NCBI GenBank assembly: GCA_964658305.1
Contig: OZ210885.1
Coordinates: 18,166,001-18,230,000 of the forward strand
DNA length: 64,000 nt
DNA from: Leptogorgia sarmentosa
Lineage: Eukaryota
Direction of reading: 5' to 3'
This document shows, piece by piece, positions 6,733 through 52,741 of the stretch; position 1 is the stretch's first letter, and the number at the start of each line of letters is the position of its first letter. The notes beneath the pieces are model-generated. The model was not told the DNA's origin and ran no database searches. It saw nothing but the letters and a program-made list of their open reading frames with translations. The position numbers and the translations under genes were made by a program.

Positions 6733-6733
6733 T

Positions 6734-16414: not shown

Positions 16415-17697
16415 CAGGCGCGGATCCAGCTTTAAATCTGACCGTGGCAGGGTCGAAAATTCACATAACCAGGGGGGGAGTTCGGGACACCCCCCCCGGT
16501 AAATTGTCGAAATTTGAACACATTTCCCTGCGTTCAGAGCATCGAATTCTATCATATAATTCGCCATTAATTCCGCCATGTTTTAGAGAGAAATAACGAA
16601 TCGCACTCAATGAACTTAAATCGAGATCATATTACTATTTGACCAACTTCAAATAATTTACATATAAAATTTGCATACACAAATATTCCCTGGCCCTAAG
16701 GCAATTGCAAATTTAATATAAATCTATTAAAATTTCTTACTTAACACGGATATTAGGCCCAGATCTTTCAATTTGACTCTTGGGGAACTGCAGTTTGGAA
16801 AATTCGCACACTCGCAGCACGATGTCGCCTGTAGATTTTATACGGCGCAGCTTTCCTTCAGTGATAAATTTATATTTATCACACTGTTGCCTCAAGAGCG
16901 ATAACTCCCCTGAAATATCTTCGCCCTGGTTCAATTTTTGAAAGATTTCAACGAGCTTCTTCAGAACATCGACCTTTTCAAGAGCCTCCATTCTAACAGC
17001 ATTCGATTCAGCGAACTGATCAATATAGCTTGTTATGAAATTCTACCCGTCAAGTCCGACGAGTACCCGAACTCATCGTTCATCATTTGCATTGCGCAAT
17101 GAAAATACGCTCACCGTGGCGCACCGTGGCGCACCGTGGCGCACCGTGGCGCACCGTGGCGCACCGTGGCGCACCGTGGCGCACCGTGGCGCACATGACC
17201 ACATCTAGCCCTGTGATTGGTTTGCACCTCTGCACCGTGGCAGAATGTTACTATATTTAGTAACAATTGCGAAACTTTTTGCACGCTGACCGTGGCAAAA
17301 TTTGTGGCTGTGATCGCAGGCGGCAGCTTCAAATTTGCGAGTGTTTACCGAACATATTCGGCATACTTCGGTACGGTTTCGGCTGTTGTTATAGTTCAGT
17401 GTTAACTGAATGATTATGCTATTGAAGAAACATAATATTTCGGCGTTTTCATTGCGTTTGACGCGAAATACGACACCACATAAAATAATGTGAACAATCC
17501 GGGAAAATGTTATTCAAATTGGCTGTTTTAGAGTTTAGATGCAGATTTCCTTGATTTTGAACGATTTATTTCAAATTATTATTCATATATATATACTTTA
17601 ATCTAATTTGCGAAAAAGGTGAACCCCGGAAAATCTAAGGTGGGAAAAATCTGACCGTGGCTCGCGCACCGTTCGCCACGGTCTGGATCCGCGCCTG
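16415..17697. mobile_element. Non-autonomous hAT-like element with 5-bp TSD (hAT5-type)
   Basis: TIR CAGGCGCGGATCCAG / CTGGATCCGCGCCTG. TSD ATCCG (16410-16414 / 17698-17702). Removal restores KPSAARALYNNG in the Kolobok frame. Confidence 0.87.
17112..17194. repeat. (CACCGTGGCG) x ~8 minisatellite inside the hAT5-like element
   Basis: Direct reading. Confidence 0.95.
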
Positions 17698-19807
17698 ATC
17701 CGCTGCTCGTGCTCTTTACAATAATGGTCCTGATTCAGCCCTAACTGTGATGAAAGAAACAGACACAAATGCAAAATATAACTCTGAGCCTGAGGAAACT
17801 GATAGTTTAGCAGATAACACATCAGACAGTGAATTCACTTCAAATACTGACAGTGATGAGGATTATTTGTGTTCTGAATCAGAAAGTACAACTGATGAGT
17901 CTGATGAGGAGGAACTAAAAAATGAAAGCAAATTTGTTGTGTTCGAAAGCATGCTTGACCAACTTTTTATTAATTGCAAAACTTGTGGCTCTTTATGTGA
18001 GATTGAAAAGTCTGTCACTGGGTAGCATGGTATCAGTCAAAGCAACCTGCTGTAAAAACCATACCTTTCACTGGAGATCACAACCACAATTAAATAACAA
18101 GCCTGCTGGTAACATTTTAATTCCTGCAGCAATTGTCTTTTCAGGTGGATCATATGAACCGTTGAAACAATTCTCAAATGCACTTAACTTGAAATTTGTG
18201 AATAAGGATCAGTTTTATGATGTGCAAGACAAGATAATTTTCCCAGTCATCAATAATGCCTATAAAAAACAACAAAAGGATATCATTGAAACATTGAAAG
18301 ATGAGGAAACTGCAGTGAATTTATGTGGTGATGGTAGATCGGATAGCCCTGGTCATAATGCTAAATATGGCACATACTCACTAATGGATGAAGCTACTGG
18401 AAACATAGTCGATTTCTCTCTTGTTCAAGTCTCCGAGGTTACTTCATCCAATGCAATGGAGAATGAAGGGTGTCAAAGATCTCTGAACAAAGTCCTTTCC
18501 CAGGATGTAAACATAAGATCATTGGCAACAGATCGTCACACAACCATAACTGCAGAAATGCGGAAAAAGTTCCCTCTATTATTCATCAGTATGATGTGTG
18601 GCACCTGTCAAAGTGGGTTACCAAGAAGCTGAGCAAGAAAGCCAAGAAAAAAGGAAACAAGCCACTTTTTAAATGGATAAAATGTGTATCCAATCATTTG
18701 TGGTGGTGTTCACAGACTTGTGGTGGTAATGCTGAAGCCCTGAGGGAGAGGTGGGTGTCCATTTTGAACCATGTGGTGAACAAACATAAATGGAAGAACA
18801 ATAAACATTTCAAAAAGTGTGAACATGGCCCCATGTCTAAAAGAAAAGAAAGAAAAACAAAATGGTTAGATGTAACATCTTCAGCCTATGTTGCCCTAGA
18901 GGAAGTTGTTCTAAACAAAAAATTTCTAAAAGATATTGGAAAACTTACAGAATTCCATCATACTGGTGAGCTCGAAGTTTACCATTCTCTGCTGCTTAAG
19001 TACATTCCAAAGCGTCTGCAATTTTCGTACAAAGGCATGGTCGCTAGAACTCAATTGGCAGTGCTTGATCACAATACGAACACTGGAAGAGAGCAAGCAA
19101 AAATTACTAAGGGCGATAACAAAGGGCAGAAAAAATACAAGTTGGTTTTTCCAAAAGGACAGAAAAAATGGGTAGCAAAGCCGATCAAGACCGGAAAGTC
19201 TTTTTCATTTGTTGAAGACTTGATGGAAGCAGTTGTTTCCATCAAGAATGATACAGATGAAAAAGACACAAGTGATAGTGATGACGAAGATACCACCTGG
19301 GCACCTTGTATTCCAAACAATATCGCTCCCATACCAAGACCCAGTAGAGAGGAAGTAATTGCAGCCCACAGAACCCGGATGTTGAAAAAACAATAAATTT
19401 ATGTTACCCTACAAGAGTGCTACCCTCAAATATACTATTTCACCCGTCGACAAGGTTCAGTATGCGGCCTGCCGCCTGTGTACATGAGTAGTGGATAAAA
19501 ACATCAACAAGCAGCAAAAGTTCTACTCACTACCTAAACGATACAATAAGATTCAAACTTCAATATGTGGCCAGTGTAGGTAGTAGATAACAACATCAAC
19601 AAGCAACAAAAGTTCTACTTACTACCTAAACGATACAGCGAAGACTCAACGTTATAGCTATTTGAACCAGTGTCCAGTGATTACACTGTTAATATCAAGG
19701 ACAAGTTTAACAATTGTTGAATGACTGTAAATTTGTATTATAATTGAAAGTAGATTAATATGTCAAAAATAGCAAATATTGAAGCAATGTTTCAGAAGCA
19801 GAATCCC

Positions 19808-20562
19808 CTACTCATCTGCAAATTTAAACCCTTTAAAAACAAAGTCCTCTTCTAAACCTGGTGGTGGAAAATGAGCTCTAATACAGCTGACTACACAAGA
19901 GGGCAATGGGACCCTTATATCCTTGCCCAAGATATCCCAACACCACCTAACAAACGTCCTATATGCGACATGTCGATTTTTTTTGTGTTCAGGCCCTTCA
20001 AATGCCTTTGCACCATATTGCTGTCGGTAAGTACTCCAGGAAAGTCGCAATACCCAGTAACTTAAACATAAATGCGTGAACACAGGATTATCAGTTATGC
20101 ATTCTGGAATGTCTATGCCCTCAATCTCAGTGGATTCTTGGTTGATAGCAACACAAGCTGGGATCTCCTGGCAACAAACACCCTCTTCTTCCCTATCCAT
20201 TATCTGGCAATGGGTACAAAGACACCTACAGTACGAAGTCGAGATATTTCCTGTGATCATTGGTGATATGTCGATCAATTTATAATATATCCTAAACCCA
20301 CACTATCATTTTTTATACTATTGAATGTAAATGATAATTACCAGTTTGTGTCTTGAAGTCTTGTATTTTCAGACGAAGAAGACCCTGAAGCCATCTCTGA
20401 TCCTGAGTCATCTCCGCCGCCACTCGAGTCAGTTTCAATCGGCTCATATGCATATGGCTGGATGAAATTCACGCCTGCTCCCACGTTCACTTCTTCGCTA
20501 GAACCCGACCCATTCATTTGAGAACTATCACTTGAAGATCCGTTCGAGTAATCAACATCCAT
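19808..20562 (-). CDS. KolX protein (Cys-rich, P2X7-ballast-like), 2 exons
   Basis: Exon 1 from 20562 to a TG|gtaatt donor. Exon 2 starts at 20225, giving NWCLCTHCQIM..E..CCQE..CIT....F...RHVAYRTFVRW..LGKDIRVPLPSCVV..IR..FP. Confidence 0.82.
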
Positions 20563-22569
20563 TTTTTCAATATATTCCTTGTATTTTAAATTACTTCGAA
20601 ATATGCTGTATTTTGTGGAAAACAACACCGACTGCGAATCTATGGCGATAGCGAACCGCGCAATGACGTCACGAGGTAAAACCGCTGCATGATCGCGGCT
20701 TCGCTCCGATGTATACTATGGCGGCGCGCAATATGTAAATTTTAGCAATTTCAACGCTTTATTTCTAGACTTATATTTAATCTGAAGACAAGAGACTTTG
20801 CATGTGAGGTAGGCAATATATGATCTTTCATTTGAGTGCAAATTGTTGTGAACCCTGACTTCCCCTTTAAAGTCATACGAAAAACAGAAGGAATATGAAC
20901 TTATTTTACGAAGACAACCAACTCGATCTGATGGCACTATGAATAATGAATTGGAGGAGGACCATTTTATATTTCAGAGCTGTGAACGTAATACTAGTAG
21001 TGATGATGTATCATAGAAGTATGATGAAAGTTTTAAAAATAGGTACAGAAAGTGTACATGTATCTGCGCCTATGTAGCTTGATGATCAAGTCTTATTTGT
21101 TTTCAGCCTTTCATTATGTTATGTTATGTTATTGCGTCTTTAAAATAGACACAGCGCTTTGCGATTGTGAAAAATGTGGCTCTCTAAAAACCAAATTTAC
21201 CTTTTCAATACCGTATCATAATATATTCATATACAATATATTCCGTCCATTCATGCGCATTTGCGTAGACGCTAAAGTGTATGTATGATCGGTATGCGCA
21301 TTACGCGTAGGTTCAAAACAGAATACTTGAAACTATATATGATTTCGTTTGTTTTGTCTCGCGCTTAATAAACACACAAACCCGTTTTATTACAAGCTAC
21401 AAAATCTATTCTCCTGGGATTGAGTGTTTCAACCATTCTGTATGGCGAAGCGTCAAAATATAGTAGATATTCCGTGATCACAATGACACCGCAGGCAATC
21501 CAAACATGTACACTGTACAGTGTGTCAGTGCGACAGCGCCGACACGCTAAAGTATCATAGGGAAAATATACGCGCTATTGTGTCAAGACATTAAACTCTT
21601 TCATAACAAATATTCGCTGTGTTCAATTGTATAAATTGCTTCATGATATTTTTGCTTTGATGATCTAAATTGCATAGCGAACTGCGAACGCGAACCTTTT
21701 AATTCATGATATTTTTGCGTATAAATTTCCTTAGTATAAATAGTGTTCTAAACGACATAAACGCTCATAAATTAACCTCTATTTCAGTGAAGTCACTCGT
21801 AGCTGCGAACATTATATTTTCTTTTTATCTGGATATTCATGCGAAACAAAATCCACGATCAAACAGACAAACACATCACCACTCTTTAGCTCACGCCTAT
21901 ATCAGCCGCCATTTTGTAATATTTAGCCCGCAAGAACTCCACGTTGGTTCCCTTAAATTTGCGGGTAGGCTCAGTGAGAATTACATCATCTCAATGTTAC
22001 GTTGTCGCCTATTGGCTAAATTTAACTAACGAATTCGATGATTGGCTGCAAGCTAACAGTTAACAGCTAACAGCTAACAACTCGATAGCAATATATCTGC
22101 TGCGCAGATACAAAAATGTTTGGAACTGTATCTATCTATTTTATGCAAAATAGTACATGATTTAGCCTACTTACACAGGCATTTCTTAAGCTCTTTTCTA
22201 TATTGATTTTTGTATTAAACGTAAACTTTGAAGATATCTAAAAGCATGGTTTATATTTTCTCTTAAGTTGTAATGTATCTTGCTGGTTTCTCAAGCTTCC
22301 AAACTGACAGCTTTTAGCCTGCAGTCCTTTTTCATTGTCTTATTTACAAAAACTGCTTTATTGCTCTTTTTGGTTCCTTGACCGAAAAATCTACCCAAAC
22401 ATTTTCGATAAAAACTGTAAGCGAACCATCCACTACAAGAAACTGTGTAACCATGACTAATGGTTAATAATGATGACAGAAAAAAACACTGGAAAACCGC
22501 GAACTCCCTTTCCAGAGAACCGGAAGTCCCCGTGATCATCCACTTTGAAAGCTGCAAAAAGTTGGCAGT

Positions 22570-24285
22570 CAGAATTATTTTGGAAAAATGTCAGAGTTAA
22601 CCTGGGAATTTCTTAAAAATAACGTTGGTATATCTGAAGTGAATGCAGAAATGGACACATGATGTAAAGCAATATTTAATACAATAGAAGATATAACGTC
22701 AGTTTATGATAACGACAAAGTTTTGGATGAGCGCATAAGGGTGTTAAAGCATGTTTTGTTACCAGCAGAAGACCAGTATGGTCGAAGTTTGCTTCATCTT
22801 GCAGCATCAGTTGGAAATACAAGGTTGGTTCGAAGCCTGGTTTGTTCTGGAGCACTAATTAACAACATGGACAGGATAGGACAAACGCTGTTGAGTCTGT
22901 CATTGTATAAAGGGCATACAAACGCAGCAAAATTCCTAGTGACGGTGTCTACAGCGGAGGACCTGTGTGATGCTGGGAAATTGGGTGTTAATGCTCTGGA
23001 CTTAATAAAGGACAAGGCCCCAGAACTAGTAAGCTTGGGAAAAAACAAAATAGACGAATATCAAACATTATTACATAACCTAAAAACAGCTTTCTCTGTA
23101 GAAGACATAACTGAAGACATGGAATGCGAAGACACCAGTTCCTATGCACAAAACAAGGAAAATTTCGGACATGCTGTAAATATCAACGTCGGTGATGAGA
23201 AGAACACTAACTATTCAGGGTTGTGAAAACCGTTGTCCGATCGATATTCTGTCCACGTTCCTGGTGGAGGGGACTTCCACAATTGCGGGTATATTAATGA
23301 GTCTATTGCACGAATTGCGGGTCAAGGAGGTTTTTGGAATGTTACAGAACACATACTCAAAAGGCCAACAATAAATCCATTGTCTTTCAAGAAGAAATTC
23401 AAGGACAATAACTTTAACAATAACGAGGAAGCTCTAATTGACTATGATGACAGTCTGTCAATTGCGATGATAAGAAAATGTGAAGAATAAGAATATTTTC
23501 CGACAGAGAATGAACTTGATGAGTGTATGAGAATGACAGGTTCTCATAACAATATTCTGCTTGAAAGGCTCGAAAAATGGATAGGTGATCAATCTTCTGA
23601 TGCAGTTTTTTCCTACCATGCTACCTTTATTAAAGACTTGATGCCGATAATGAGGTGGTGCAAAGAAAGTACGAGATATGGAAATGGTTTATCCATGGAA
23701 GATGTGTGGATGCTTTTGCCACAGCTTTATGCACAAGTTGGTAAAACGAATTACAGAGACGAAGCATTCACACAGTATGTATATGCTGTTGCACATCTCC
23801 CCCTGGCATATAGGAAAATGTACCAGCAGAACCGTTCAGTGAATGTTGATGGGAGGCAGGGGCGACAACTCGCAGGTGATGAGTGGGTGGAGAGCTACCT
23901 CGTACGTCCAGTAAAGCAATACGCCAGTGCACAAAGTTCTTTTGCTATGGTGCAACTAATGTCTTGTAGTGTAAGTCTATTGGAGATGAACAAAAGCATG
24001 TATAAGGATCATGGAGCATTTGACATCCACAACACAAAAAAACATAAAAAGCCAAGTTCAATGTATGACTGCCTTAAAGTTGCACAATTTGCAACCAACG
24101 AAAAGTGGTTTGAGTCCTGTGGTAGAGGCAAAGTTCCAAAGTATGCATGGGGAGGCACATCATGCAAGTCAGAAGATTCAGTCGCCTCCCAGTACATTGA
24201 CCCTCTTTCAAAAGGAGATAAGAAAGCAAAAGAAGAATTTATCCCTTTTTTGCACAGAAAGTACTCAAATCACATGGATAAATAA
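22570..24285 (+). pseudogene. Academ-like transposase C-terminal part containing ankyrin repeats
   Basis: Ankyrin: GRSLLHLAASVGNTRLVRSLV..GA.IN..D..GQT. Then NVGDEKN, GGGDFHN, GKTNYRDE and AGDEWVESYLVRPVK (Academ/DUF6589-like catalytic motifs). Stops and frameshifts present. Confidence 0.65.
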
Positions 24286-24540
24286 ATGATGATGGTTTCA
24301 ATTGGTTTAATCATCATGAAATTATGAAATATAAAAATTGTTACTTCTGTATATAGTATCAATTCCTTAAATTCCTGGAATTTAGATCAACAGTGTTGGC
24401 TTTCTAGATCACACTGCCTGTGCAACACCACAGCGTTTTTGGATTACATTTGAAATGGTTCTTTTTAATAAATGGTAAACTTCACCCCTTGTGGTTCTTG
24501 ATCCACTGTTTTTTTGTGCAGCTTTCACTACACTGAAAAT

Positions 24541-26482
24541 TTATTTAACTTTCTCAAATTTATGAACATGCATGTTGAGTGCTAATAATTCATGGGCTTT
24601 TGAACCTAAAGTAATATAAAAACAAATGTTTCTACCTTTCTTTACAACTTTTTCAGCAAGGATGTCCTTAGCAATCAAAATGTGCAAAAATTTCTCGAGC
24701 AACACAACTGCAGTGAACTTATTTTCTAAAGAACCATAATTGTCTAAAGCATCCATTCCATTGTCTTTAATAACCTTTTGATTGCTCTTTGCCAGAAATA
24801 ACTTCAGAGTATTGCATGTTATTTCTTTCCCAGAAAGTTCCACAATGGCTTGAACAACTTTCATGGCATCTGTTGTTCCATCATTTATTGCATATGTCCC
24901 CCTACTCTTGCAATTATCACATGCTGACACACAAATGAAGTTTTCTCTTGTTTCACCATAGTATGACATGACTGCTTTATGTCGGCACTTGACTGGGTTT
25001 TCTAAGAAGGCAACTAGTTCAACCACATTTGCATATTGTACGTCCTGTGCATTGTTTTCCTGGATGTTAAACAATTTGTATAAGGAAGCCTTGTCTGAAA
25101 AATTGTAGTAGAGATGACACAATGCAGAAGAGCCATCTCGTCCTGCATGTCCACACTGCTGGAAGTAATCATCCATACTTGGAGGTATGTGAGTATGGAT
25201 AACAAATCTCACATCAGAGCGATCCACACCCATTCCAAATGACGCATTTGCAACAATGACTTGAGCAGACTGATCAATCCATTTATTCATGCTTGCAGTT
25301 TTCACTTCCGCACTAAGGTGACCATGATACTTCACAGCATTAATTCCTCTTTTAACCAATTCAGAATGAATTTTAGCAACATCACTTGGCAGTACAGCAT
25401 AGATGATACCACACTGTCCCTCTTTTTCAATAATTATGTCAGTTAAGTCATCATATAGCTTTTTACCTTTTTCTTGGACTTCCAAGTGCAGGTTTGCTCT
25501 AAAAACAGAGTGTCTATACACACTTATATTTCCAAACATTTGTATCAATTCAGCTTCAGTCTTGTGATTAATTGTAGCACTTAGAAGAAGTTTGGTGCAA
25601 GATGTTCTTGCTAGCCTTTGGCAAACAAGTTTATAGGCAGGACGAAATGTTAGATATTGTGTGTGCCTCGTCGAACACCACACATTCTATGTCAAGACTA
25701 TCACACAACGAATATACCTTCTCAGAAAAAGCTCCATGTTCAAGCATTTCTGGAGTGCAGAATATCAGCTTATAACGTTCCAAATTTTGTGTTTGACTGT
25801 CTTTGATTTCAACGGGCATCTCACCAGTAATATGGCAAGCAGCTATGTCAAGCTCCTCGCACCTTCGTACTTGGTCAAAAATCAGCGACTTGATTGGAGA
25901 AATTACAAGCATTGGTTTGGAAGCCAGAACAGCTGGTAGCATATATGTTAGGCTTTTTCCACCTCCAGTATTTAGGGCAGCGAGTACACTTGTTTCACTT
26001 ACTATAGCTTCTATAACTTCTTTCTGAAGTGGGCGAAATTCTGCGAAACCAAAGTATGTTTTTAGAGTGTTCTCGATCAAAGGCGAATTGTTGCTTTCAC
26101 ATACAGACGCCTCTCGGCCGTCAAACAACTGGTTAATTGTTCTTTGAGAGTTGTCATTAACTACGTTGGTTGTTTGACTATAAACTTCCATGTTATGGGT
26201 GGAAACGTGGGGTAAGTTTGCCTTCTTTGTAACTGCATATCTGTATAAATTGGAGTGATCAGTAACTTCCACAAGTGTCACGTTGATATCACTCAGAACA
26301 CCCAGTTCAAGTAAACCAAATGAAGCCTTCAAGGCTGCTTCGTATGCAGAAATGGCTTCAACATGTGTTTCGAATGCTTTTCCAGCCTTCACAGAGTATC
26401 TGGTCAATACATGTTCAGCATTGGTTGGCAGGGAGGCAACTTTTTCTAAAACACGTTCTACTTCGCTACAGGACGCCGCCAT
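24541..26482 (-). pseudogene. RecQ-like SF2 helicase of AcademH (frameshift near 25650)
   Basis: FRPLQ, TGGGKSLTY, SPIKSLI.DQ, DEAH, LSAT, FGMGVD..DVRFVIH, QQCGHAGRDG, RQC Zn CRH..C..CDNC. Intronless. Confidence 0.9.
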
Positions 26483-37461: not shown

Positions 37462-39424
37462 CTAATCTTCCTCAACAACATCCATACTGTTATCGCTTTC
37501 AACATCATCCAAAACTTCAATGCTGTTAATTTGAAGAGTGTTTGTCTTTATATAGACTAGCTTCCTCACCTTTTCAGGATCGAGCCGGTTACGTAGCTTG
37601 GAATGTACAAATCCAAAGGTTGAAAAGGTACGCTCTGAGGCAGCACTAGATGCTGCCATTGAGAAGACTCGCATAGCAAGGTTTTGCAATAGAAGCCAGT
37701 CTGTTCCATCAGCAATCCACCATTGCAAAATAGATTTTGACTTTCCAAGCATTTTAAAACGGAATGTGTTTTGTTGCCTCTCCTTCAATGACTCTACCCA
37801 AAATCTTCTATCTCATTTCTCAGGGTGCGTGACATACCATCGCCCAAATAACGAGGATCTAGTAGGTAGGCAACACCGTGGGCATCCCCATACATGAAGT
37901 CAAATCTTTCACGAACCAACTTGACCAAGTAAGCTTTCTTATCTTCACTGACATCGGTCAATTTGCGCATCATGTCTTCCAGATCAAGAAAGGCCTTGTA
38001 AACATTGGAGCAGGGCACTGCGTCGGACTGAAAGATCTTTATAAACATATCAATTGGGGTTAGTATCTTGATACATTCGTCTAACTTCTTTACAAAATCT
38101 GAATCAGTTATGATCGCTTTAACTGCAGCTCGTTTTTCTTTTTGCTTGGCTGTCTCCTTGATGGTAAAATCCCGCTCAGACACCAAGCCATTTAGTATGC
38201 TATCTGCAGCCCAAATGGATTTGAAGCAACCACTAAGTGTACCCCAACGAGTTGGGGCTGGCTGGACTACACCACTTAACTTTGCTGCATTAAGTGCCTT
38301 TTTAGCTTCGCTTTGGGGGCATGATGATTGTGAAAAAATGCAACCACATCTTTGCAGTCAATTGAGAACTGCTGCAGCTCTTCAAATGGATATCCATTTG
38401 GACATTCTGCAGGACCACCACAAGTGCACTCAGTTTTCTTTGCTGCAAAAATATCTTTCACTAACAGGTGCAGGCCATGAGACACACACCCATGGAAGAA
38501 ACATGATGGGTATTTTTCCTCCAGCTCACCCCAAACCTTTTTATTGGTAGCTGTGTTGTCAGTGACAGCACCAACAACATTGCTGCCAAGATTGTCTATT
38601 ACATGACTCAGGTCTTTGGAAATCCATTCTGCATCATGCCCCTGTTCTTCCGTGTTCACTGATTCCAAAAACAGTGAGTTGGTTGGAGATACAGCCATAT
38701 AATTTACAACTGGCTCATTTGCTATATTCGACCATGCATCACTTGTTACACAGACATACTGACCATCAGATGATAGCACTTTATCCACTTGACATTTAAC
38801 TTTTTGATAACATTCTTCAAGCAGCCCACCTTCAGAATCATCTGCTAGTTGCTTGCGCGATGGCAGTTTGGCTCCTGGTCGTGCTACTTGTATTGCTCGC
38901 AGCAGAAATGGATCTTTAATTCTTTGGAAGCTTGTTCCAGTGCAGTAGAAGTGCATTGCAATTTCATAGTTAAATCATTTTTGTTCTGAAATACTGAACA
39001 GAGGTACAGCAAATGACCTTGCTGATGGCTGGGAACTGGTACTACTAGAACTTGTGCTTGAGAATTTGCTCTTCGTAAATGAGGTTTCTTTTTGGGCTTT
39101 ATCATTCCACCATTCTGGTCGATCATTGACATTTGTATTCAGCATTACCTTCTTGAATTGCTTGCATCTTTTCAGGTGATTTCTGACAGATGCGGTTTTA
39201 TGGTGGTGCCTAACCAACTGTTTACAATGCTTACACAAAGCATGATTTGACATGGATTTGGAATGCACATTTGGCTCAGAAAATGCATAACTCCATACCG
39301 AGTGAACAGGAGCTCCTCGCTTTGCTTGGTTAATATCAATAGGTTGATGTTCATTAACTCCATTTGTCCCAGTCATTTGACTCATTTCAATTTCGTTTTC
39401 CGGCATTACAAGCTGCAATAACAA
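37462..39424 (-). pseudogene. hAT transposase (BED finger, DUF659-type core, dimerization domain), frameshifted
   Basis: VWSY..CKHC..NHLKRC; TSDAWSN; VTDNTA; GCVSHGLHL; AYLLDPRY; WW..LAMRVFS..SSAASERTFS..RNRL. Confidence 0.88.
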
Positions 39425-40182
39425 AAATTAATGTAGTTGCAAAAGTTAAAATTTATTATTTTACAAACTGGGCTATAACAGTATAACATTATAACTCGCG
39501 TTTACTCTATAGCCTATATCATAGTGGTTACTGGTTACTGGTCTGGCACTGCATACTGCATGCTAGCAATAGCATTGAATATTGCATAATTCTAAATAGT
39601 TAAGTAAATAGTAAATACACTGCCAATTGGCCATTTGTTATTTGATAATATTTGTGCATGTTCATATTTCATGTTTTTCAGCTTTATGACGTTTTACAAA
39701 AACGTTGATTTGATAATGTCATGTTTGAATGATTCATGTTTTATTAAAATTTTAAATATGTAAATTTTTACCTCATTTGCTTCAACACAATTTGCATTCG
39801 CCATCTTGAATTTTGGGACTTTTCCCCAAGCTCTCACTCGTAATAATTTCATAGTGTACGTACTTGTGTGCAAAATATATACCCGTATACCAATAATATA
39901 CATGTAAAAATAATAATAATTGCTGTTTTAAAGACAGCTGTTAGATGCCCGCGATATTTTTTGAGGAATAGAACAAATTTAAAAGAAAAACATTAAAAGA
40001 GGGTGGTAAAGGGGGGGTATGAATCACATTTCACAGAGAAGAAAACAGCCATTTCACGATTCACATGCCTTAAAAATGCGATCTCACGTTTCACGGAAAA
40101 TTGGATTGTAACAATAATGATAAAATAATAACACGTTCATTTATTTTATCGTTTGTACATCGGCAGCTATAAAGAATAATTT

Positions 40183-43100
40183 TTACATCCAGAGCATTGC
40201 TCTGCTTGATGTCTTTACCACCCGTCCACTTCTTGTTCTTCCTGATGCAAACAAAAAGTTTAATTCTCTGTTTTGTACATGATTCTCTACTTCTTCGTTT
40301 CCTCCTCCACATTCTTCTGCTGCAAATTCACTACCTGAAGAATCGTCATATTCGGATAGCTGATCAACTTCAGACTCAATAGCATTTCCGACCAAATGAT
40401 TCTCATTCACAACACCTCCCAGTTGTTCCTCATTCTCAGAATCTTTTGAATGTCCCTCATCTTCAACATCATTCAATTGTTCTTCATCTTCAACAAGAAG
40501 AAGATCTAGTCTTTCACAGCGGTGGACAGCAGTCTGATACATGTTTAGTGGGAGAGTCCCTGCCTTGTATTTTGTGGTTTCCTGCTGCACTGTGCGTTGT
40601 CTAACACATTTCCCATTGTCTCTAGCCCATAACCGCATTAGTTCTTGATCTTCTGAACGCATTTGCGGTTTGTTTTGTTGCTTCATTCTTGGAAAATCTT
40701 GCAGATGCATTTGCGTTGATGGTACTGGGTAGTACGACGTGGGGTGAGTGAAATAAAAGGCAGACCATTGGGTCATTCTTTTGGCGGCTTCGAGAGCTGT
40801 CTCACCAAAGTCTCGGGCATACTGCAACTGCATGCAAATTTTCAACTTTTACGGTGAGAAGAGCTTCTGGATTGAAGGCGAGTTCTGGATTAATCGTTTC
40901 TATGGTCTTAGTAAGACGCATCAACCCTTGATTTATCATGCCCACAGATTTGACGGTTTTACTTGCAATGGTACCTTCAGGTCCATTGATCTTTTTACTT
41001 GTTCCCAGAAGAGTTTGTACCGTCTGAACGGTATTTTGAAGGTACTCAAAGACAGCTTTGGTTTTCTGCTCTGCTTCTTGGAGAGTTCAAGTGTGTCGTC
41101 GCTTGTGCTTTTGATGGACTGAAAATGCCTCGTACAATTTCCCCAGATTTTCGGGAAACTTAACAGCAGAACTGGCATCTGTTATTAATTTAACAGCTCC
41201 AACTTGCGCATCAGTAACGAGAATATTCTTCTTGTTTTCAGTACAAATACCCATAGGTTGAGAAAATGATGCTTCAGTTCCGTCATTATTACCTTCCTCC
41301 CCCCAAGCCAGCGAGTAGCACGATTTCTTTGTTTGTCTTGATCTTAACTTGTCTGCTACCCATATCCACAAATGCAATATCTTCATGGTTGCCAATAGGG
41401 GCTATGCCTTGCACCTCTGTGCAGGAAGCAGATCCGTTGGATAACAACAAAGAATCCTCTTGAGTTTCGAGGTCGATCGCTGAAATGCCGTTGTTATGAG
41501 AAATGAAAAGTGTACCATCCAAATGGTACATGTCCAGTACACAATTGCAATTGACAGGATATTTTGATAAATCCCTTACCACTCCTGCAACTCCTACACC
41601 ATCAAGTGAGAGTTCCATAAAATAGGAACGGGAGTCAGTGTCTGAAGCCACAACTATCATATCATCACTGGCAAGGCAAATTCTGTCTACAATCACATTT
41701 CTGTCAGTATTTACTGCAGACATCAATTTTCCAGCTGTGTCGTACTCGTTTCTCAACCTTATAAGGAATTTTTGTAGTCGCTTTCTGAGCTCAACCATGG
41801 TCCCCTCATCTGATAATCGTCTACTGCGAAGAGCATCCTGGAGAGACTTCTTTGTTTTCAGAGTTGACGGTTTCAGGGAAACTTTCTGTTCAATCTCTAC
41901 CACTGTGATAGCCTTTTTCCCTCTTTCTACCACCAAGGCAATACCTTTGCTACTTAGATATACCATACTCCTGGCATCTTGTAAAACTTGATTTCACAAC
42001 ACTTACACGAACAGGGTTATGCATGTCGGCCAAGCATAACCTTGTCTCCCTCTTCAGCGGAGCGTAATCCAGGAAGAAAAATTTCCCATTTGGCCTGAGA
42101 CAAACATTGATCGGGTGAGGATACATTCCAACTTTGTTGTTATCAGTTGGTCTGTATTTGTCAGGAATTAGAGTGTGGACTACTCTTTTCTTTAGTGACG
42201 ACAATACTTTCAGTACATCTGGGCTGGACAATCTTAAAATTGGCTCCACGGCCATCCGATCTTTATTCTGGACATCTTCTTTAGTGAGACACCTTCTTAG
42301 ACTAGACCTAATAACAGGATTACTATCGTCTCGTAACGTATGTATCACTGAAAGAGACATGCGACTTCCGTTGAACAGGCAGAACCAATTAGAAAAACTG
42401 CATTTGCAACTCTTTCCTACATGCACTGCGTCAGGGAGATAAACACAAAATTCAAGCTCTGGATCGACCAAGCAATCCAGCTGGAGTTGTTCTAAAAGTT
42501 CCATAGCCTTTTTGTTTCCTTCTTCACAGTCAGATGACAGAGCAAAAATGGCGAGGTGAACACACTGAATATTATTCGACAAACAGCGACTACAGGCTCT
42601 TAAAGCTGGAGAGTAGCTAACTTGGCCAGTTTGATGGCAGTCGTCACATAGACTTTTCCCCTCCCAGCAGGTTTCACATTTCTTATTGCAGATGTTTCTG
42701 TTGCACTGAGAGATTAGCTCATTGGCGCCAGTATTTTCAACACAAGCTTGACAGCATTGCAATGATTCGATCTGTTTAGTGAACATACTCAAAATGTCCT
42801 GGCCAGTCTTCCCTGCCTTCGTCAAGTATTCCACAGCCACTTGCATACTGATGGTGTCACAGAGTGTTGTTATCATTGAAACATTAGCCTCGGTTATAAC
42901 ATCTGATTTCAGAAATGCTGCATCTGGAGAGGGGTTGTCCTTTACGAACTGGAGATCAACCTTTGTCTTCAAGCCGACATTACGCTTTAGACCTTCATCA
43001 AACATTATTCCTGGCTGTAATGCTGTGCCATCATTTTGTATCGCCGCACCAAATATTTTCACAATTGGTGCATTGATAACAGGAGCTATCTGGGCTGTTT

Positions 43101-45461
43101 CACCTGATGCAAGCTTGAGAAATCCCAGATGCATGTCTTTCAAAACACCACTAGCTGTTGTGTAACCACCTTTCATTTTCTGTCTGGTGGGCTTTGATGG
43201 TCCACCAAGGTTAGGATTTGCTTCTTCTGGCTTCTTTATACCCCCCTTTCCTGTGCCGTGAAACATAGGCCCTCTCACAAAATTTACTGTGCTTTCTCTA
43301 CCCAAATGTTCGATAGTGTTAAAAAACTCGACAACTGATACTGATGATTGGGGTCAATCAAAAAGTAAACTATATCTCGTAAGTACTTATACATTATTCT
43401 ATCTCTTGAAATCAAACCTCTCCGAATAAGATCATTTAGTTTCATGCAAACATCATCTGCCTGATCTAGTGTTATTGGATATGTAAACCAATCATGATCT
43501 AATATCTTTTCATGATCGTCATCTGTTCCCTGACAGGAATTACTGTCAGAATTAGTAATAACTTCATGATCCCAACTGGCTAGTTTATTGGCAGCAAGAA
43601 ATTGGATACTGTCAAAACTGTCATGTGAATCGTCCCGTTCAATATCTACTAATGGCATCATCTCATTGTCCAGCTGCATAGTATCAGTCAAAATATCTGG
43701 GTCAGTATTCTCAGCATCATACATCTGCTTGCTAAAATTTTCAAGGCCAGTTTCACTATGAACAAAAGATAAACATTGAGATTGATCTTTGTTGACAAGC
43801 AACAGTTTGTGAACAACAAACTGCTTAATGCTGATCTGCATGTTCCAGGACAAAACCAATTTATTAAAGAAACATAATACAAAAATATTTTAACACAAGT
43901 AACATTAAGCTCATATTAATTTTCTGTTTTGGCAAATACAATAGAGTAACTTTACTGTAAAATTATAAAATAAGAAAATCCTACAGTGTTCGTATAGTAT
44001 GTAGAGTAGAAAAGACAATCACATTTGCAAGTCTGGGTCACTTTCTTGAGCAGGACCATCCACACCTTTTGTACCTTGAACAAAAGATAACATACTCTGT
44101 GCATGGCACACTTTTCCTTTTGTTTTAAATCTTTCTTCACACAGGCATCATAATGTTCTAAATTAACAAATGATCAAAATGAAATCAACTTTTGAGCTGT
44201 TTCTTGTCGTTCCTGATTGTACTTGTATCATGTTCAAGGGACCATGGCTCAGACAGGTACTTTATAACATGTCTGACATGGTTACAAATTCAAAAAAAGG
44301 ACATGTCATAAAGACTATAACTTACTTTCTTTGAAATACTGTATTGTCTTAGTGGCACTTCTGTCTGAGACAAGTTTCTTTTTTTGAGAACAAATTCCAC
44401 ATTTAACTTCATTCTCACTTTCTAAAATACTGCCACTAAGTTGTACAATACCTAAAGTAGAACATAATATCATTAATGAGGGTCCTGTACATAGGGGTAA
44501 AATGGGAACTGGGATTTGCTTCTTTTTGGCTGGAAAAATGGGATTTCATGCACTGGGATTGGGATTCATCAGCCAAAAAACAAATAGAAAATGGAAATGG
44601 GATTAAGACTTAGAACAGGGGATTTAGTCAAAATTTGGGCAGGGAAATGGGAATAGGAACCCCCTTTCAGGACCCTCATTAAGTAATGACAATAATCATT
44701 GATCAATATGCATTAAACATATATTTAACCTTCTTTTAATTTTTTGTATTTTTCCTCATTTTTTTCTTCTTTATTTGTCTTTCTCTTCCGAGTCATTGGG
44801 GTCTTGCTGCTGTGTGGTTCCTGAGGCTCTTGAGCATCGCGAGAATCAGATAACTCATTCCCAATGACTAATTGTATGACTGGTGTATGTTCGGCAAATA
44901 TAACCACTCTTGGAACAACATCCACTGTGAATAGAAAATGGCAATAGATAGATAAACAGACTAACGCTAAAAACGCTCAGTGTGTATCATTGGGATATTG
45001 GAGACCCTCTTCTTTCTAATATCATAGTTTTAATAACACTTTGGTTAAAATTTCAAGTACAAAAATTTAGTCAATACTACACCTTGCAAGATATTATTGC
45101 GTTCCATAACTAAGGGCATTTCATTCTCCCACTGACTTTGAGTTCTTATCGAAAAACTCTCTACCAAACTAGTTGAACCAGGATGTCGAACGGTGCGTAA
45201 AAATGAACAGTCGATATTGAGTCCGAGGCCTTTCTGGCCAGCCAAAGGCCTAATGTCGCAGAATTCTAACACATCTCTCTGTAGCATTTCCAAACGAATA
45301 TGCTTCATATTTGACAAAGGAAATCTGGTTTTCTCTTTATGGATTAAAACTTTCTTTTTAGAAGCATCTGCCAAGTAAAAACTAATGATAACAGTGACAG
45401 GAAATGTCACGCTTCCTTGACTGTCTTGACTTGAAACTTGATTTGCATTTTTGGCCTCCAT
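40183..45461 (-). pseudogene. Multi-exon P-element-like DDE transposase with Cys cluster, SAP and NHL repeats (frameshifted)
   Basis: GGPSKPTRQK, IQNDGTAL, LSSDCEEGN, LPDAVHVGKS, KDRMAV, TVKVENLHAV. SAP LQDALRSRRLSDEGTMVELRKRL. NHL GNNDGTEASFSQPMGIC..ILVTD...VKLI. Confidence 0.68.
44478..44677. mobile_element. MITE with GAGGGTCCTG termini
   Basis: GAGGGTCCTG / CAGGACCCTC. Flanks ATTAAT / ATTAAG (6-bp TSD, 1 mismatch). Internal AAATGGGA repeats. Confidence 0.78.
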
Positions 45462-48400
45462 GATGATTGATATTGACGTGGGGGGTCTGGGTACGAGGTT
45501 TATTTATAGCTATTATATCGCTCGAGTTTGCGCAATTTGGGCCTCAACTCCCCAAGTCAGTCAAAACATTGAACTAAATATATAGTTATATTTAGTTCAA
45601 TGGTCAAGACTCAAGTGTGGAAAATCCTCATTATAAATTATAAATAAATGTAAAATAAATCAAAATAGACAAAATAAGCTAGAGAAAATCATAATTCACG
45701 ACAAAGACAGTTTAATTCTCGTTTCACGGAGTGTTTTTATCGACAATCACGGCTCACGGCGGCAATTCAAATCACGTTTCACGACACAAAATTTAGTCAT
45801 TTCACATTTCACGATAGCAATTATTGGGCCATTCACGGCTCACGAAAATACCCTTTACCACCCTCTTAAAAGACAATTAAAGACAAATTTTACACAAAAT
45901 TAGAGTTTTCTTTTAATGGTTTAAAACAATTAAAGACAAATTATTAAAAGACAAATTGCCATCCCTGCTTTCATCGCTAATGATGAATTAACCATTGCTT
46001 CAACAAAAAGCTTCAAAGACGATACAAGTCGATGCCACTCAATGAATGCAGTACTAGCAAATCTCATCTGGGAGTACACTGTAGCAACAGTACATTTTAG
46101 TTGTAGCTGGCTTGCTGTTGATTCTAAAATACTTCGACCTGAAAACATTTGGAATATTTAGCGTAGCAAAATGACATGTAATTGGGTGAGGGCTATTTCA
46201 GATCCGTCAGAGCACCTAGTTACCAGGACTTTTAAGATTCTGGCTGCTCGGCCACAAAATTCAAGATGGCACCGAATGAAGGAGTGGAGAATTTTACTCT
46301 TCGATACTTTCTATGCTTATTCACAATTCACACACACGATTCAACATAACGTAGTATGTATATATTTAATCAACTTATTCCTACTAATAAATATTTATTT
46401 TAAAAGACAAAGGAGGGCACTAGTTCTTTACAAGTGTGTTTACAAGTTTGCTTTTACAAAAATGCCCAAGGAAATATGGAAAAGCCACCCCAACGCCGAA
46501 GAACTGGCCAACGAATACGCTGAATGGTGCCAGAAGCTGAAGAATATTCATAGATTTGTATGAGTTTTACAAATGTGCGAGGCATGCGAGCCACGATGCG
46601 AGGCGTACGAGGCATGATGCGAGGCGTGCGAGGCATGATGCGCAAATCTCACAAGCCGCAGAAGGATGTGTTGAGGTGTTATCAAGTCTGAAACAAGGCT
46701 TGTAAACGCATCACGCACGTGGCTTCCAGCGCGCTTGTTACAACTTGTGCGATTCTTGGTGTGTAGCAATATACAAAATTTCATGTACTCGTTGGACTAA
46801 TACTAATTACTATACGCTATTATGTACTGCTACATTGTATAATTCTTTTTTACTGTTTTTAACCGTTAACAATATAAACCAAACAAAATGAAACTCTAGG
46901 TATAGTATTAGTGTTCGCTAAATTGCAACAAGAAGAACATCAGTTATTTATGTAAAAGGAATTAATAAGTACATTGCTTTCGCTCTCAAAACTTAACGTC
47001 AGTTAGTTATGCCGTAGTCATAGATCCTTCTTAATTGACATGTCGATCAATCTATGAAACACCAAGCAGTTGCTTTTGCTCGAGACTTAAATTCGAGTCA
47101 AACTGAAGACTCATCGTAGACGGATTGTATGGTTGAATAAAAGAATTACGCGGCATTGCGGAAATGCATCGTAGTTTGGGGCAAAAAAAGAATGTCCTCG
47201 TTATCCAGTGCCGCATTATCGTTCTGTAAGGTCCGTCTGTTGTGACTTGAAGATCACCATCACGTAGAACAGCTTTACACGCAGCACACTTTGCATCCAC
47301 TATCGAATTACGGTGTTCAACTCTGTAGCTTTGCTCTTTACGTGTCGGGAGTTGCGCTAGAGTCACGTTTTCTGGAAAGGACTGCAAAATAGTTTCCCAT
47401 TCAGCAGCAGAATAGCGCTTTTTATAAAGGTTCATCTTTCCCTAAATGTAGAATGTTGTGTAATAGCCATGTGGCGTGATGACATTTGTTGGTGCAAAAA
47501 GAGGACGAACAAGTGACAGATTCCTTCGAGATTTTTATGTCCTGTAAATAGCCCATAGTATCAAGTAATTTGAAGTGAAATTGTGTCATGCTGCTGTTAT
47601 ATTCCACGACATCCATTGTGATGCCCTCAACGCGTTTCTTGAAAAATTGTAAATTTCTCTTGTTGGTGTGAATCTCAGCTCTTTGATGTGAACGTTGGTG
47701 TGAACCTTTCTTCGATTTGTCTGCTCTATGAGTATCTCGAGTGTTTACGTGGTATTCGTCTTCGACGTCTTCAATATCGGACAACGACTTGTACCTTTCT
47801 GCGTTTTCATTCACAAATTGTACTGCAGATGCTGAGCGTTCCCTGTCAAAATTTAGCATTTTCCCCTCTTTTTCAGATCTGTCTGCGGCAGTTGGGCCTT
47901 TACCAACAGTCTTCAGGCCACTCTTTTGTCGTCTGACCTGTGCAGCTTCCAATACAGCGGCAGAACAGACAGTGGTAACGACGTCAAGAAGTCGCTTTCT
48001 GTAACCCAAGCAAGAGACAGAAGTGGCGTTTGCCACTTCAGCGGATGACGCGTTTGTTATGCAACTGGCTCGGCACCATTTTTGCCATCGTATTCTGCGC
48101 CTCCACCACCACTTCTTAAAGTTCGTCATTTTCGATAAGTTAGTTGATCGACTTTGTATAAGTTTTTCCAGCTTATTTTCTGCTTCTTTCGCTTCGATCG
48201 ATGTTGCTGCGTTCAGTGCATCGTTCATGATCGTTTCAAACTTTTTCTGGTCCGTTTTTGTTTTAAAGTACTTGCAGTGTCTTCGTATGTCCTGTTTTAC
48301 ATGAAATTGTCTTATTCTTAACACAAGTACCTTTTACTTTACACAGTCCTTTCCAGAGTGCACCTCCCTCGTCTCCAACATACGCTGGTGGATCTAACCC

Positions 48401-49769
48401 TCTGTTCGCAAACTCAGACGCAACAAGTCCATATTCCTCTGCAATTGCGGGAAGGATTTTGTTGACGGCACTGTCAAAGACTTCAACCATTTTTGCAACA
48501 TTCTCAGAATTTTCCCCTGGTTTAGGAGCAAATAAAGTAACAAGCTTCATATTGCGGCGAAGAAGTGGAAAGTAAGTTGTCATTTCGACTGCAGTGAAAC
48601 CTTTTGCAATACTTTCACAACCATCAAGACTAACAGGTTCATTTACTACACCAATCGTTATTAATGCTGCAAGACGCAACTTTTCTTCAGAGGACAAAAT
48701 AACGTAGTTATCACCAACTTCGAGTATTAGGTTGTTATCAAGGTTTCGTTTTAAGAAGTCATCCTTAAGTAAACGTATTGCCTCCAGGTCAGATCCGCCT
48801 GGCAATTTTTCGTCGTTAATAACAGATTTAAGGTACTGTACGTGTCTTGGATTGCTGTACTCGTCAGCAACATCCTCAATTTCCTTCACACCTTTTCCAC
48901 TAAGCATTGCTTCCCTGATTTTCTCCACTTGGATTTGCTTTGTTGTACTTGTAGGCCGAGTTTTCAAATAATCTTCTAGTTTTTCCTTTTCTGGCTTTTT
49001 CTCTTGAGTCCTTGGTGAGCAGTTATGGGTACCGATATATACCACTGTCATGTCCTTATGGCAACGATCATGTTCAACGTACTTTCTTGCACAACATTCT
49101 ATGGGTAAAGCATTCGCCTTGCAGTGGATACATTTCTTACTCATCGTAAAATCTACTTTGTTGGTTTCTCGGTGGATCTTTTTGTATATACACTGTGAAT
49201 TACGACATTCAAGAGAGCCTTTGCAGATCTGTAGAGTCCGTCTCCCTCCATTACAAAATCCTTTTCTATTACATGGTTGGGTACGCCCCCAATTCCAGTT
49301 ATCGGACACTGGGGCAAGAGGATCTTTTTGGTTGTATTCTACCTTGTATTTTGATGGGCCATTGGGTCATGCAGGCACTTTAGCTGTTGATAACGTTGGC
49401 AATTTATCAATAACATCTTGGTTTAGACATGACCGTTTTCCCTCTTTATGGAGAAAAATGACATCTCTATAAAGAAATGGAAATAATTATATATTATTCA
49501 GGCCTGATATACGATATTTCGGAAAGAATCATCTAACTGCAGCACATACTGCCAAACATTTAGAAACTGACGTGCAGCACAGTACATTTTATTATTCATT
49601 TTCGAGGTGACTTCAGTTTACCTCAAGACAAGTTAGACAACAAAAGTCGATGGTGAGTGTTCACTTGACTTCTTTTTGTCCGTTGTAGTAAAGACAGTCC
49701 CCCCTTTCTGTCACAATTCTCCTTCGTTAATCCGAAATCCTCATTATTATGTTTTGAAATGTTAATTTA

Positions 49770-49962
49770 TCCGCCGGATAGTGGGTTAAACGGTCTCATG
49801 AGACCGTTTAACTTTATCCATCGTTTAGCCAAAATTTAACCAGTGGATACCGCTAAACGGGCTTCGTACAACGCAATTTCTCAATCGTTTAAATTTTGTC
49901 CGGCGGATAGCGAGTTAAACGGTGTATAGCGACTTAAACGGCTTTCGTACAACCGGCCCCTG
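49770..49962. mobile_element. Harbinger-type MITE fragment in intron
   Basis: Ends CTTTCGTACAACCGGCCCC with repeated GGATAG/TAAACGG motifs. Confidence 0.45.
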
Positions 49963-50819
49963 GTCTTATCATTACTGGTTAGTGCTTTAATTCAGTGATC
50001 TCATAGTAGTGTACACTGGATAGAAGCTTCCTTACCTATTGAAAATTAAGCCCAAATTAATGGCTTTAATTACTTTATAATAATGGGTAAATAAATATCA
50101 TTTATAATAATACTCAATTCTAATCTTAAACCTCATTGCCATGATAAAAAAAACTATATCAATATGCCACATTTTAATATTATTTTTCATTATATTTTAA
50201 TATGTCTGTCACTAATAGAACCAGTATCCAGTTATTTTCTCAACCAGTATCCGAGAGACTACAATCTGGTTCTATCCAGTATCTGGTAAAGCAGTATCTG
50301 GCATGTCCCTAAGTTTACTAGGCATACATTTTCGTTTTGTTTTGAGTCACACCTGTATTTTTCTTCCTTTGAAAATGCTCACACCAGGCTGATACTCTTC
50401 TGGACCAGACATAAAAAATTGCTGTGCACCTTCTCAGCAACTACAAAGATTGTTACCATATTTACAGTATAAACATACATTTGTTAGTAGCAATTGATTC
50501 AAAAAACATTTGCAACATTTTCTAATAAGTGTCAATATTAAAGCATAATTACAATGATATTCTGATTGGTCTGGAGTGTTCATACATTCTTCATCTAATT
50601 TGCATGGTCTGGTCAGCAGCATATAATGTGAACCAGTGTATGCAAGAAAAACTGAGGATTCTCTTTTCCCATCAAAAGGTGTTGTTTTTGTTAATCGCTA
50701 AAATACATTGAAAACAAATTATGGTCATTCTAAACTCAGCTGCCCATTGCTTACACATTACATGGAGTCTTGGGAAACCCTCCTTTTAGAATTCCACGAA
50801 CTGTCTCAAAATTCTTACT

Positions 50820-50930
50820 GCTATTATATTATTATTATTATTATTATTATTAAATATTAAAAAAATATTATCTTATTATTATTATTATTATTACTGGTTG
50901 TTGTTGTCGTTGTCGTTGTCGTTGTTGTAA
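50820..50930. repeat. (TTA)n / (GTT,GTC)n microsatellite
   Basis: Direct reading. Confidence 0.85.
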
Positions 50931-52741
50931 TTGATACTGTTATTGTAGATTACCCCTGTCCAATCAATGACATTTATATTGATGGAAAAAAGAGATGCAG
51001 CTGAACGGATAACTACATGGTTTGTCATTTCATTCCTTAATGCCAGTATGCATTTCTTCCATGTTTTGGGTCGTTCTTTCAGTGCTGGGAAATCAGCATC
51101 TGATAAAAAAGACATGAGATCCTGTTCCTCCATAGTAGCACCCTAAGGAAATAAAACCACAGCATATAACCTTGTAGTATAAACAATATTTACATTTCAT
51201 ACTGCATACACTACAGATTATGTGCAGTATTTTTGGTGGTACCTGGGCTGAGGCTACACTACCCATCTACCATAGTCCAGGTCTTGTTTCGAACTGCAAT
51301 ACATCCGCAGTCTAGCAGTGTTAAAACAGTAGTAGCCGGTGCCACTGCCATCTACCTACTATTATTAGAATTTATAGTAAAACTTTCAATGATCTCACAC
51401 AAGAAGTTCAATAAATATTCAAATGCAAAGGTAATGTTTGATTTGATTAAAAAAGACCGGAGAAACACTCACGCTATTCCTGACCAAGACAACCTGATGG
51501 GACATCATGTAATCTTCAATTAGACGTATCGTCTCCACAATGTAGATGCTTAAGTATGTTGATATGCATTCGTAAAAGCATCGATTTTTTGCCCCCGATG
51601 GATCGAAGCGTAGACAAAATCCCAGTTTCCTCGCTTGCAGCAAACACTGCAGCCGCCTGTTTTCCATCTGTTTTGCATATAATACATAAATTAATACGAA
51701 TTATTTCGTTGTGAATGAGTGGATAAAAACGAATTACACTTACTAAAACAAAAATGAAAACTTACTTGGTGATCAAATATAACTTGAGTTGATTGAGAAC
51801 ACACTATGACTATGACAGTATAGTAGCACAAAGTCGAAGCTTCGGGTTCAGAGCAGTCAGAATCAGCTTCAGGCCACATGCACCAAACCGGAAATAAGAA
51901 CCGGAAATATACGCCTCGCAGGCTGCCTCGCACACCTCGCGTGCCTCGCTGCCTCGCAATTTGTATCACTCGATTTGTATCGTCCTGTAAAAAACACTTT
52001 TTATAAAACATTTTTTAATAACTTATGTAAATAATTTTGGTTAATAAAAACCACTTTTTATGAAAAACATTGTTCCAAAAACTTATACGGGGGGTGCGAC
52101 ATCCACTAAGAAGGGGGGTGGTATCCGTAAAATAGGGGGTGTGGAAACACATCATAAAGGGGGTAAGAAAACACGAAAAATACACAAAAAACTCCACACG
52201 AGATACAGGAAAAACTCCACGCAACTTCCACGCAACGCTATATTCTCCACACAATATCCACGCGCAACACCCGAATCCCGTCTATAATACCAGTATAGTA
52301 CTACTGGCGCCATCTTGAATTTTGTGGCCAAGCAGCCAGAATCTTAAAAGTCCTGGTAACTAGGTGCTCTGACGGATCTGAAATAGCCCTCACCGTCTGT
52401 AAGGATTTGTTTGATGTTGTGTCGGTCTATGTTTGTGTTTTTCTTGGTTGTTGGATTCTTTTGAGTCCATTTATTGGTTTTTTTAGTGTGTTTGGTTATG
52501 TTGTTAGGCAATTTGTATTTGGTCGTGGTTTTTGTATCCTGTAATCTTTTTGTGGTTTGTTTGGTAGTTATTGTTGTAAGTGTCTTGTTGTGTATTTTAA
52601 GCAAAGTTCATTGGTTTTGTCTATTATTTTCTGTGCTGTGTTTTTTCGTTGAATTTTATTTTAAGTTGGTGTGTCCTGTGTTGTAGTTTGTGTTTTGTAT
52701 CTTTAATCATGTGTTAGTGATAGGCGATTGTGATATCTAGT

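Follow-up and report, generated by a model that had tools for sequence, protein, structure and literature searches.

A probable transposon of a divergent P-derived lineage in Leptogorgia sarmentosa, with a predicted β-propeller inside its transposase

The element, its ends and its neighbours

The window analysed here, a stretch of 64,000 nucleotides of Leptogorgia sarmentosa DNA (contig OZ210885.1 of assembly GCA_964658305.1, positions 18,166,001 to 18,230,000), holds a whole terminal-inverted-repeat (TIR) transposon, the features of which are given in Table 1. All motifs named in a preliminary description of the locus occur on the minus strand in the stated order, spread over five reading frames. 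The copy is dead as assembled, with breaks near 43340, 41983, 41299 and 40830 and a stop at 41087-41089. Some of these lesions may be private to this copy or assembly errors; those at 41299, 41983 and 41088 are absent from contigs of public runs X1 and X4. Near 43335 the X1 and X4 contigs read as the window does and X12 differs, and contigs of X1, X4 and X12 carry additional letters at 40827-40837. Exon borders and introns were predicted from sequence; run X23 yielded one 207-bp piece.

Table 1. Features of the transposon, numbered from the first letter of the window
Feature	Position	Strand	Basis and remarks
Whole TIR DNA transposon, 5867 bp, broken copy	39999..45865	gene on -	TIR, target-site duplication (TSD), empty-site joint
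TSD TTAAAA, left	39993..39998	+	sequence
15-bp TIR, gene 3' end	39999..40013	+	inverted-repeat pair, GAGGGTGGTAAAGGG
Subterminal TCACG-type repeats, putative transposase binding sites	40024..40097	+	repeat families
C-terminal domain, acidic tail, conserved TRSGR-like end	40183..40840	-	alignment
C-terminal helices of P-type insertion domain	40841..41180	-	HHalign; catalytic Glu at their end, 40843-40841
Predicted six-bladed NHL-type β-propeller	41180..42190	-	model of homologue P0003; crosses three frames here
SAP motif between propeller strands	41763..41855	-	E 2e-4; helices 607-645 in P0003 model
P-like N-terminal catalytic half (helical DNA-binding region, RNase H strands, insertion-domain start)	42190..43353	-	model and fold match
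D1; D2; DxxH	43032-43030; 42531-42529; 42432-42421	-	within catalytic half
Ten-Cys cluster between D1 and D2	42562..42753	-	alignment; putative metal binding
C-x2-C-x22-H-x3-C zinc finger	44140..44451	-	motif; predicted GT-AG intron 44325-44158 inside
Nested 200-bp MITE, ends GAGGGTCC	44478..44677	.	flanks ATTAAT/ATTAAG (5/6); in predicted intron
Part of putative second exon	44854..44925	-	tblastn to P0074 residues 110-133, E 2e-4
Putative first coding exon, N-terminal domain of unassigned type	45075..45461	-	tblastn to P0074 residues 2-113, E 7e-11; predicted borders
Subterminal TCACG-type repeats, other end	45686..45844	+	four repeat families
15-bp TIR, gene 5' end	45851..45865	-	inverse of GAGGGTGGTAAAGGG
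TSD TTAAAA, right	45866..45871	+	sequence

The 15-bp inverted repeat is perfect and begins GAGGGT, with TTAAAA flanking it on both sides. At the window site alone, a duplication of 6, 4 or 2 bp would fit, a shorter one implying longer ends; the 6-bp length is settled by other copies, in run contigs and at metagenome locus L054. Contigs of public runs X1, X4 and X10 contain a joint from 39992 to 45866 that omits 5873 bases, that is, 5867 + 6. The short side of this joint has only 22-31 letters, and the joint may come from a paralogous repeat instead of this locus. In run X1, 14 contigs diverge immediately past 45865. L054 holds a whole 5878-bp relative, which encodes a homologue, ends in GAGGG..CCCTC and has ACATTG at each side. 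The 4-bp and 2-bp readings were ruled out by L054 and by L102 (TGCCTA).

L054 is one of 80 metagenome loci, and terminal pairs were counted over all fetched loci plus the window. Filtering for xAGGG..CCCTx inverted pairs at 12/14 left 35 distinct pairs, and exact 6-bp duplications were found at 6 of the 12 GAG pairs and at none of the 23 others. The six GAG elements with an exact duplication (the window and five more) always had one of 6 bp, which provides the TSD statistics that the preliminary description had called for and, together with the empty-site joint, supports its 6-bp TSD. The six duplicated targets (TTAAAA, TATTTA, TAATAA, ATTTAG, ACATTG and TGCCTA) are mostly AT-rich, and no strict target motif was found among them; the flanks at L128 match at 5/6. 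GAG..CTC termini occur in 6/6 complete elements but are not a strict rule, two unpaired ends (L014 and L066) reading CAGGGTGGTAAAGGG, the window's TIR except for an initial C. At L014:1054-1070 and L066:968-986 the sequence is near-identical to the window's TIR and repeats, yet begins CAG; these ends possibly represent a subfamily with P-like CA termini.

The TCACG-type subterminal repeats are likely transposase binding sites, and arrays like that at 45686..45844 occur in L001, L009, L014, L022 and L059. A GAGGG-N5-9-GGG motif, defined post hoc after inspection of the loci, lies 3' of the gene in 9/16 loci and in 7/126 background windows. In the metagenome-assembled genome (MAG) G001 the G-rich pattern, which served for locus choice only, was not enriched (88 against 106 in the control). 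Internally deleted derivatives of the element appear in run contigs as joints 40144->45712, 40148->45657 and 40161->45657.

Loose contig ends lie at the border of the nested MITE (44677), and its depth, which is not a copy number, exceeds that of the surrounding gene more than 100-fold. Its ends resemble those of L054, L001, L059, L098 and L128, and because they are shared with these loci the MITE was likely moved by a sister subfamily.

Other elements lie elsewhere in the window. A broken hAT-type transposase (37794-39427; DUF659, E 4e-25) with a BED-like finger is found about 600 bp from the element. At 46185-52394 there is a 6.2-kb element with 89-bp inverted repeats; its ORFs (47422-49366) had no Pfam match at E ≤ 0.001, and its GAGGG pair has no 6-bp duplication. 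A 5.7-kb element at 15122-20871, which we take to be Kolobok-like, has inverted repeats of 238 bp, is bordered on each side by TTAA and gave a weak PF20700 match (E 2e-5). At 23491-25686 a DUF6589 ORF lies opposite a RecQ helicase ORF, presumably an Academ-like arrangement, and 5473-10375 carries two long ORFs, one of 419 aa and then one of 1222 aa that has two SAP-like matches and no further Pfam match.

The transposase and its relatives

The catalytic half of the window copy was modelled as 388 aa with a pLDDT of 90.0. Foldseek returned two matches at E ≤ 0.001, both of them P transposase (6p5a and 6pe2; best E 1.9e-6, TMq 0.47-0.49), and VIA, run against 48,161 chains, gave 6p5a at Z 12.7 (rmsd 3.8, 259 residues aligned, P residues 155-420) with a runner-up at Z 6.3. 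The proposed comparison with Hermes and RAG1 gave E 0.058 and 0.22, respectively, in Foldseek. For profile comparison, a P control group (A5) was assembled starting from a P-like gene of MAG G002, with 58 proteins aligned out of 120 listed; it matches 6p5a at E 2e-12. HHalign aligned the family core, taken without the Cys cluster and propeller, to A5 over 404 columns (97.2%, E 4e-11), whereas the reversed control gave 0.2% and block shuffles at most 0.6% in 10/10. The helices past the propeller (P0003 834-1062) matched A5 at 95% (E 3e-8) and the N-half by itself at 23%. Direct profile searches of PDB sequences with the family alignments did not reach 6p5a, and those with N-half and C-half alignments found nothing relevant. 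Among 48 homologues scanned, PF21787 passed its cut-off in two near-identical Mytilus sequences, P0016 and P0074, and through it a Mytilus member is already labelled 'P transposase-like RNase H domain-containing'. On the models and alignments, then, the catalytic half has a P-type fold and the family is P-derived: the enzyme is P-like, as first described, with Foldseek and VIA pointing to P transposase and HHalign to the P control profile, and is not the unplaceable one that the same description took it for.

The distance from D1 to D2 is about 167 aa in the family, 73 in P and 91-103 in A5, and that from D2 to Glu is 539-612 as against 228 in P. Since the catalytic-half match covers P 155-420, the propeller begins at about P residue 420. 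By fold match and profile, P-type helices lie on both sides of the propeller, and the D2-Glu spacing without the propeller, about 220 aa, is near the 232-248 of the control group. Both points argue that the insertion domain was kept. In the models and alignments it appears interrupted by the propeller, not replaced, as had first been proposed.

The reading of a built-in NHL propeller with SAP was itself supported. In an AlphaFold2 model of P0003 (pLDDT 85.8, pTM 0.82), VIA matched residues 495-834 to six-bladed propellers at Z 23-25 (Z 24-25 for NHL and Pizza6), the profile of the transposase family matched SOQ1 and NHLRC2 (E 3e-20 to 4e-17), and fold searches with the full-length model found propellers only. 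The SAP match in the window falls below the Pfam cut-off and is above it in 5/48 homologues scanned; in the P0003 model its helices sit between propeller strands.

The family comprises proteins of 1,000-1,400 aa. Besides Priapulus, members with a named source come from corals (Desmophyllum, Oculina, Acropora, Montipora and Porites) and mussels (Mytilus). Searching for longer proteins yielded 31 relatives, and further, more distant ones came from a profile search; P0003, P0008 and P0023 are examples with open frames. In alignment A2 (98 rows, P0003 numbering, gaps excluded from counts), the motif series of the preliminary description proved near-invariant: D215 in 72/74, D382 in 76/77, D415 in 71/77, H418 in 75/75, D472 in 73/74 and E946 in 62/62. 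The multi-Cys cluster claimed between the first two Asp was likewise confirmed as ten Cys at 308-371, conserved in 76/80 to 79/79, which likely form two or three zinc sites. The absence of a THAP domain also held, Pfam scans of the window and of 48 homologues giving no THAP match. In its place is the C-x2-C-x22-H-x3-C finger, which recurs in P0016, P0019, P0022, P0074, P0078 and P0097; it was checked in homologues with an N-terminus, most database proteins starting past this exon.

Viral contigs gave 15 pattern matches and no relatives. A bacterial occurrence was rejected: the three 'prokaryote' loci look like animal DNA binned into MAGs, judging by their MITEs and P-like genes. The MAGs concerned, G001 and G002 (L081, L082, L121), carry bacterial labels and include seemingly animal sequence in which MITEs and P-like transposases occur. 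The NCBI label Sedimenticola on P0010 and P0262 is probably due to contamination.

P transposase is described in PMC7776569 as the sole transposase that uses GTP, with eight contacts (D528, K385, K400, V401, S409, F443, D444 and N447). D528, the one contact with a reliable mapping, lies three residues ahead of the catalytic Glu. Its position is D in 58/58 A5 rows and in at most 1/63 family rows, where L, T, V, M, I and C make up 60/63. An Asp one residue past this position, present in 16/63 family rows, could stand in for D528. By a putative mapping of D444 and N447, the A5 control also lacks a clear pattern at these two residues. The A5 proteins (the P0262 group) have KMRNHLAE and FRD motifs instead of the fly-type insertion-domain residues, and HHalign places P's KMRNHL one helix before the DRMAV motif, which leaves the equation of DRMAV with KM.V in the preliminary description tentative. 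Mainly through one residue, D528, the alignments point weakly to a family that is likely independent of GTP.

Proposed mechanism and alternative readings

We consider it probable that the locus is a broken TIR transposon of a divergent lineage derived from P, with a 6-bp TSD and xAGGG ends (mostly GAGGG), whose single transposase has a predicted six-bladed propeller and SAP motif in a P-type insertion domain and likely cuts and pastes without GTP. The enzyme likely moves DNA in a manner so far undescribed. The C2HC finger would bind the subterminal TCACG repeats, the helical region ahead of the RNase H fold would bind the TIR, by extension from P, and D215, D382 and E946 would act on transposon ends and target alike, cutting the former and attacking the latter at points 6 bp apart; the most likely course would be cut-and-paste by a DDE site of P type, staggered by 6 bp. 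More tentatively, and at less than even odds, the likeliest role of the propeller and SAP would be to clamp flanking or target DNA and steady the insertion domain, one chain doing the job of GTP in P and that of RAG2 beside RAG1.

In a different reading, possible if doubtful, the transposon is the same and the propeller serves for targeting or for docking on the host (chromatin, RNA or protein) and is dispensable for cutting, with GTP or another nucleotide possibly used. It is favoured by the nearest propeller folds, which include teneurin and the TRIM71 and Lin41 NHL domains (solved with RNA), by the AT-richness of most targets, by the established role of SAP as a DNA- and chromatin-binding motif, and by the greater variability of the propeller region (median identity 0.27, core 0.39). 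However, the six sites share no strict motif, and a propeller region of 318-384 aa is kept in 40 of the 41 rows that span D1 to Glu, the exception being a 382-aa fragment, while core identity (median 39%) falls to 23%. No propeller-less close relatives were found in protein and profile searches either; the profile search with representatives was crowded by NHL-repeat proteins, so such relatives were out of its reach. A propeller of this variability is equally compatible with a catalytic role and with one as a scaffold or in variable host binding. It is extremely improbable that the locus is a host gene, or an accidental joining of a P relic to an NHL gene, that does not move. The broken copy and the contig depth of the coding part, about equal to that of the flanks, would suit such a gene, but TIRs, duplications, derivatives and one architecture across three phyla speak against it, and the complete ends in L054 together with the empty-site joint largely refute it.

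The rank and novelty of the P-derived lineage also allow other readings. That it forms a superfamily of its own, sister to P as Dada is to MuDR, seems somewhat unlikely to us. Its ends, TSD length and zinc finger are its own and it has three insertions, all of which favour this rank, as does a quick tree in which a long branch (SH-aLRT 100) separates the family (37 rows) from the P control (20 rows). Repbase, according to PMC4455052, allows peculiar features to outweigh sequence convergence. Against it, PF21787 passes in the two Mytilus sequences, and the tree, with a single P subgroup and without an outgroup, does not separate a sister position to P from a nested one; the DDE phylogeny that had been suggested thus yields the split from the P control and not its rooting. 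Coral and bivalve repeats are well sampled in Repbase, where unclassified 'DNA6/DNA-6' families are present. These families and the existing PF21787 label would suit the idea that Repbase or Dfam already lists the lineage, whether as a P subgroup or as an unclassified 6-bp-TSD family, and that only the structural reading is new, which we hold to be not very probable. Members might be present in the bivalve library of PMC10294476; a passage on this curated set lists no P consensus among its superfamilies. Full-text literature searches found no paper on a transposase with an NHL propeller or on GAGGG elements with 6-bp duplications (PMC5753468, PMC5751038, PMC6446971, PMC5718144 and PMC2872659 were among those consulted), and P itself is described with 7-9-bp duplications and THAP (PMC3698922, PMC7776569) and with a DDE + D(2)H core (PMC3698922). 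The most far-reaching version appears quite unlikely: an undescribed sister of P at superfamily level, spread over cnidarians, molluscs and priapulids, which has lost the GTP cofactor and acquired a six-bladed propeller within its insertion domain, a one-chain, independent parallel to RAG1-RAG2, and which is the source of abundant GAGGG 6-bp-TSD MITEs.

A P-derived enzyme that lacks one GTP contact and carries a 340-residue propeller in the same domain would make the origin and necessity of the cofactor testable, and the homologues with open frames make an assay feasible. The family would also provide a parent for GAGGG MITEs with a 6-bp TSD, which are abundant in the DNA of marine invertebrates. 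Furthermore, an insertion domain able to carry a whole folded module bears on the origins of RAG-like partnerships and on transposase engineering.

Comparison with known systems

Among known systems, Hermes is far below P as a fold match (TMq 0.23), and its hAT-type motif is C(2)H where the family has D(2)H. GAG or purine-rich ends are known from Sola2/Sola3 and Kolobok, and 6-bp duplications from IS3EU and hAT6; Sola and Kolobok targets are 4-bp or TTAA. Sola3 and Kolobok were rejected because ACATTG at L054 and TGCCTA at L102 are unreadable as TTAA. No Pfam or fold link led from the family to Sola2/Sola3, Kolobok, IS3EU or hAT6.

The family resembles RAG1-RAG2 and ProtoRAG in joining a DDE enzyme with a six-bladed propeller, which is the fold of RAG2. 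RAG2, however, is a separate protein of Kelch type, whereas the family has its propeller, of NHL type, in one chain with the enzyme. RAG1 and Transib have CAC ends and a 5-bp duplication, unlike the family, and match it weakly in fold (VIA Z 5.0 for RAG1 and 4.3 for Transib), so the parallel first drawn with RAG1-RAG2 stays an analogy. The propeller is like those of SOQ1, NHLRC2, TRIM71 and teneurin in sequence and fold, but sits inside a transposase and has a SAP motif interrupting it.

Of the P-like proteins, the mollusc group A5 (P0262 and 57 relatives, with PF21787) aligns over the whole core, including the helices past the propeller. It differs in having neither Cys cluster nor propeller and in keeping the NSD..EN motif; the ends of its control element were not found in locus L125. 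With the P superfamily (Drosophila P 6P5A/6PE2, 1360, Galileo and THAP9), the family shares a helical region followed by a split RNase H fold, the order D, D, D(2)H, E, a helical insertion domain between β5 and the Glu helix, short TIRs with subterminal repeats, introns (predicted here) and MITE derivatives. It departs from that superfamily in its 6-bp TSD as against 7-9 bp, its C2HC finger as against the C2CH of THAP, its ten-Cys cluster, its propeller of 320-380 aa with SAP, and its GAGGG ends, P termini being CA..TG. Cleavage by P depends on GTP and is staggered by 17 nt. Core and insertion domain agree with P; THAP, duplication length and termini do not, and for this reason we file the family as P-derived and not as a plain P member. 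It is a distinct lineage, as the preliminary description held, but one derived from P, with its own ends, TSD length and architecture.
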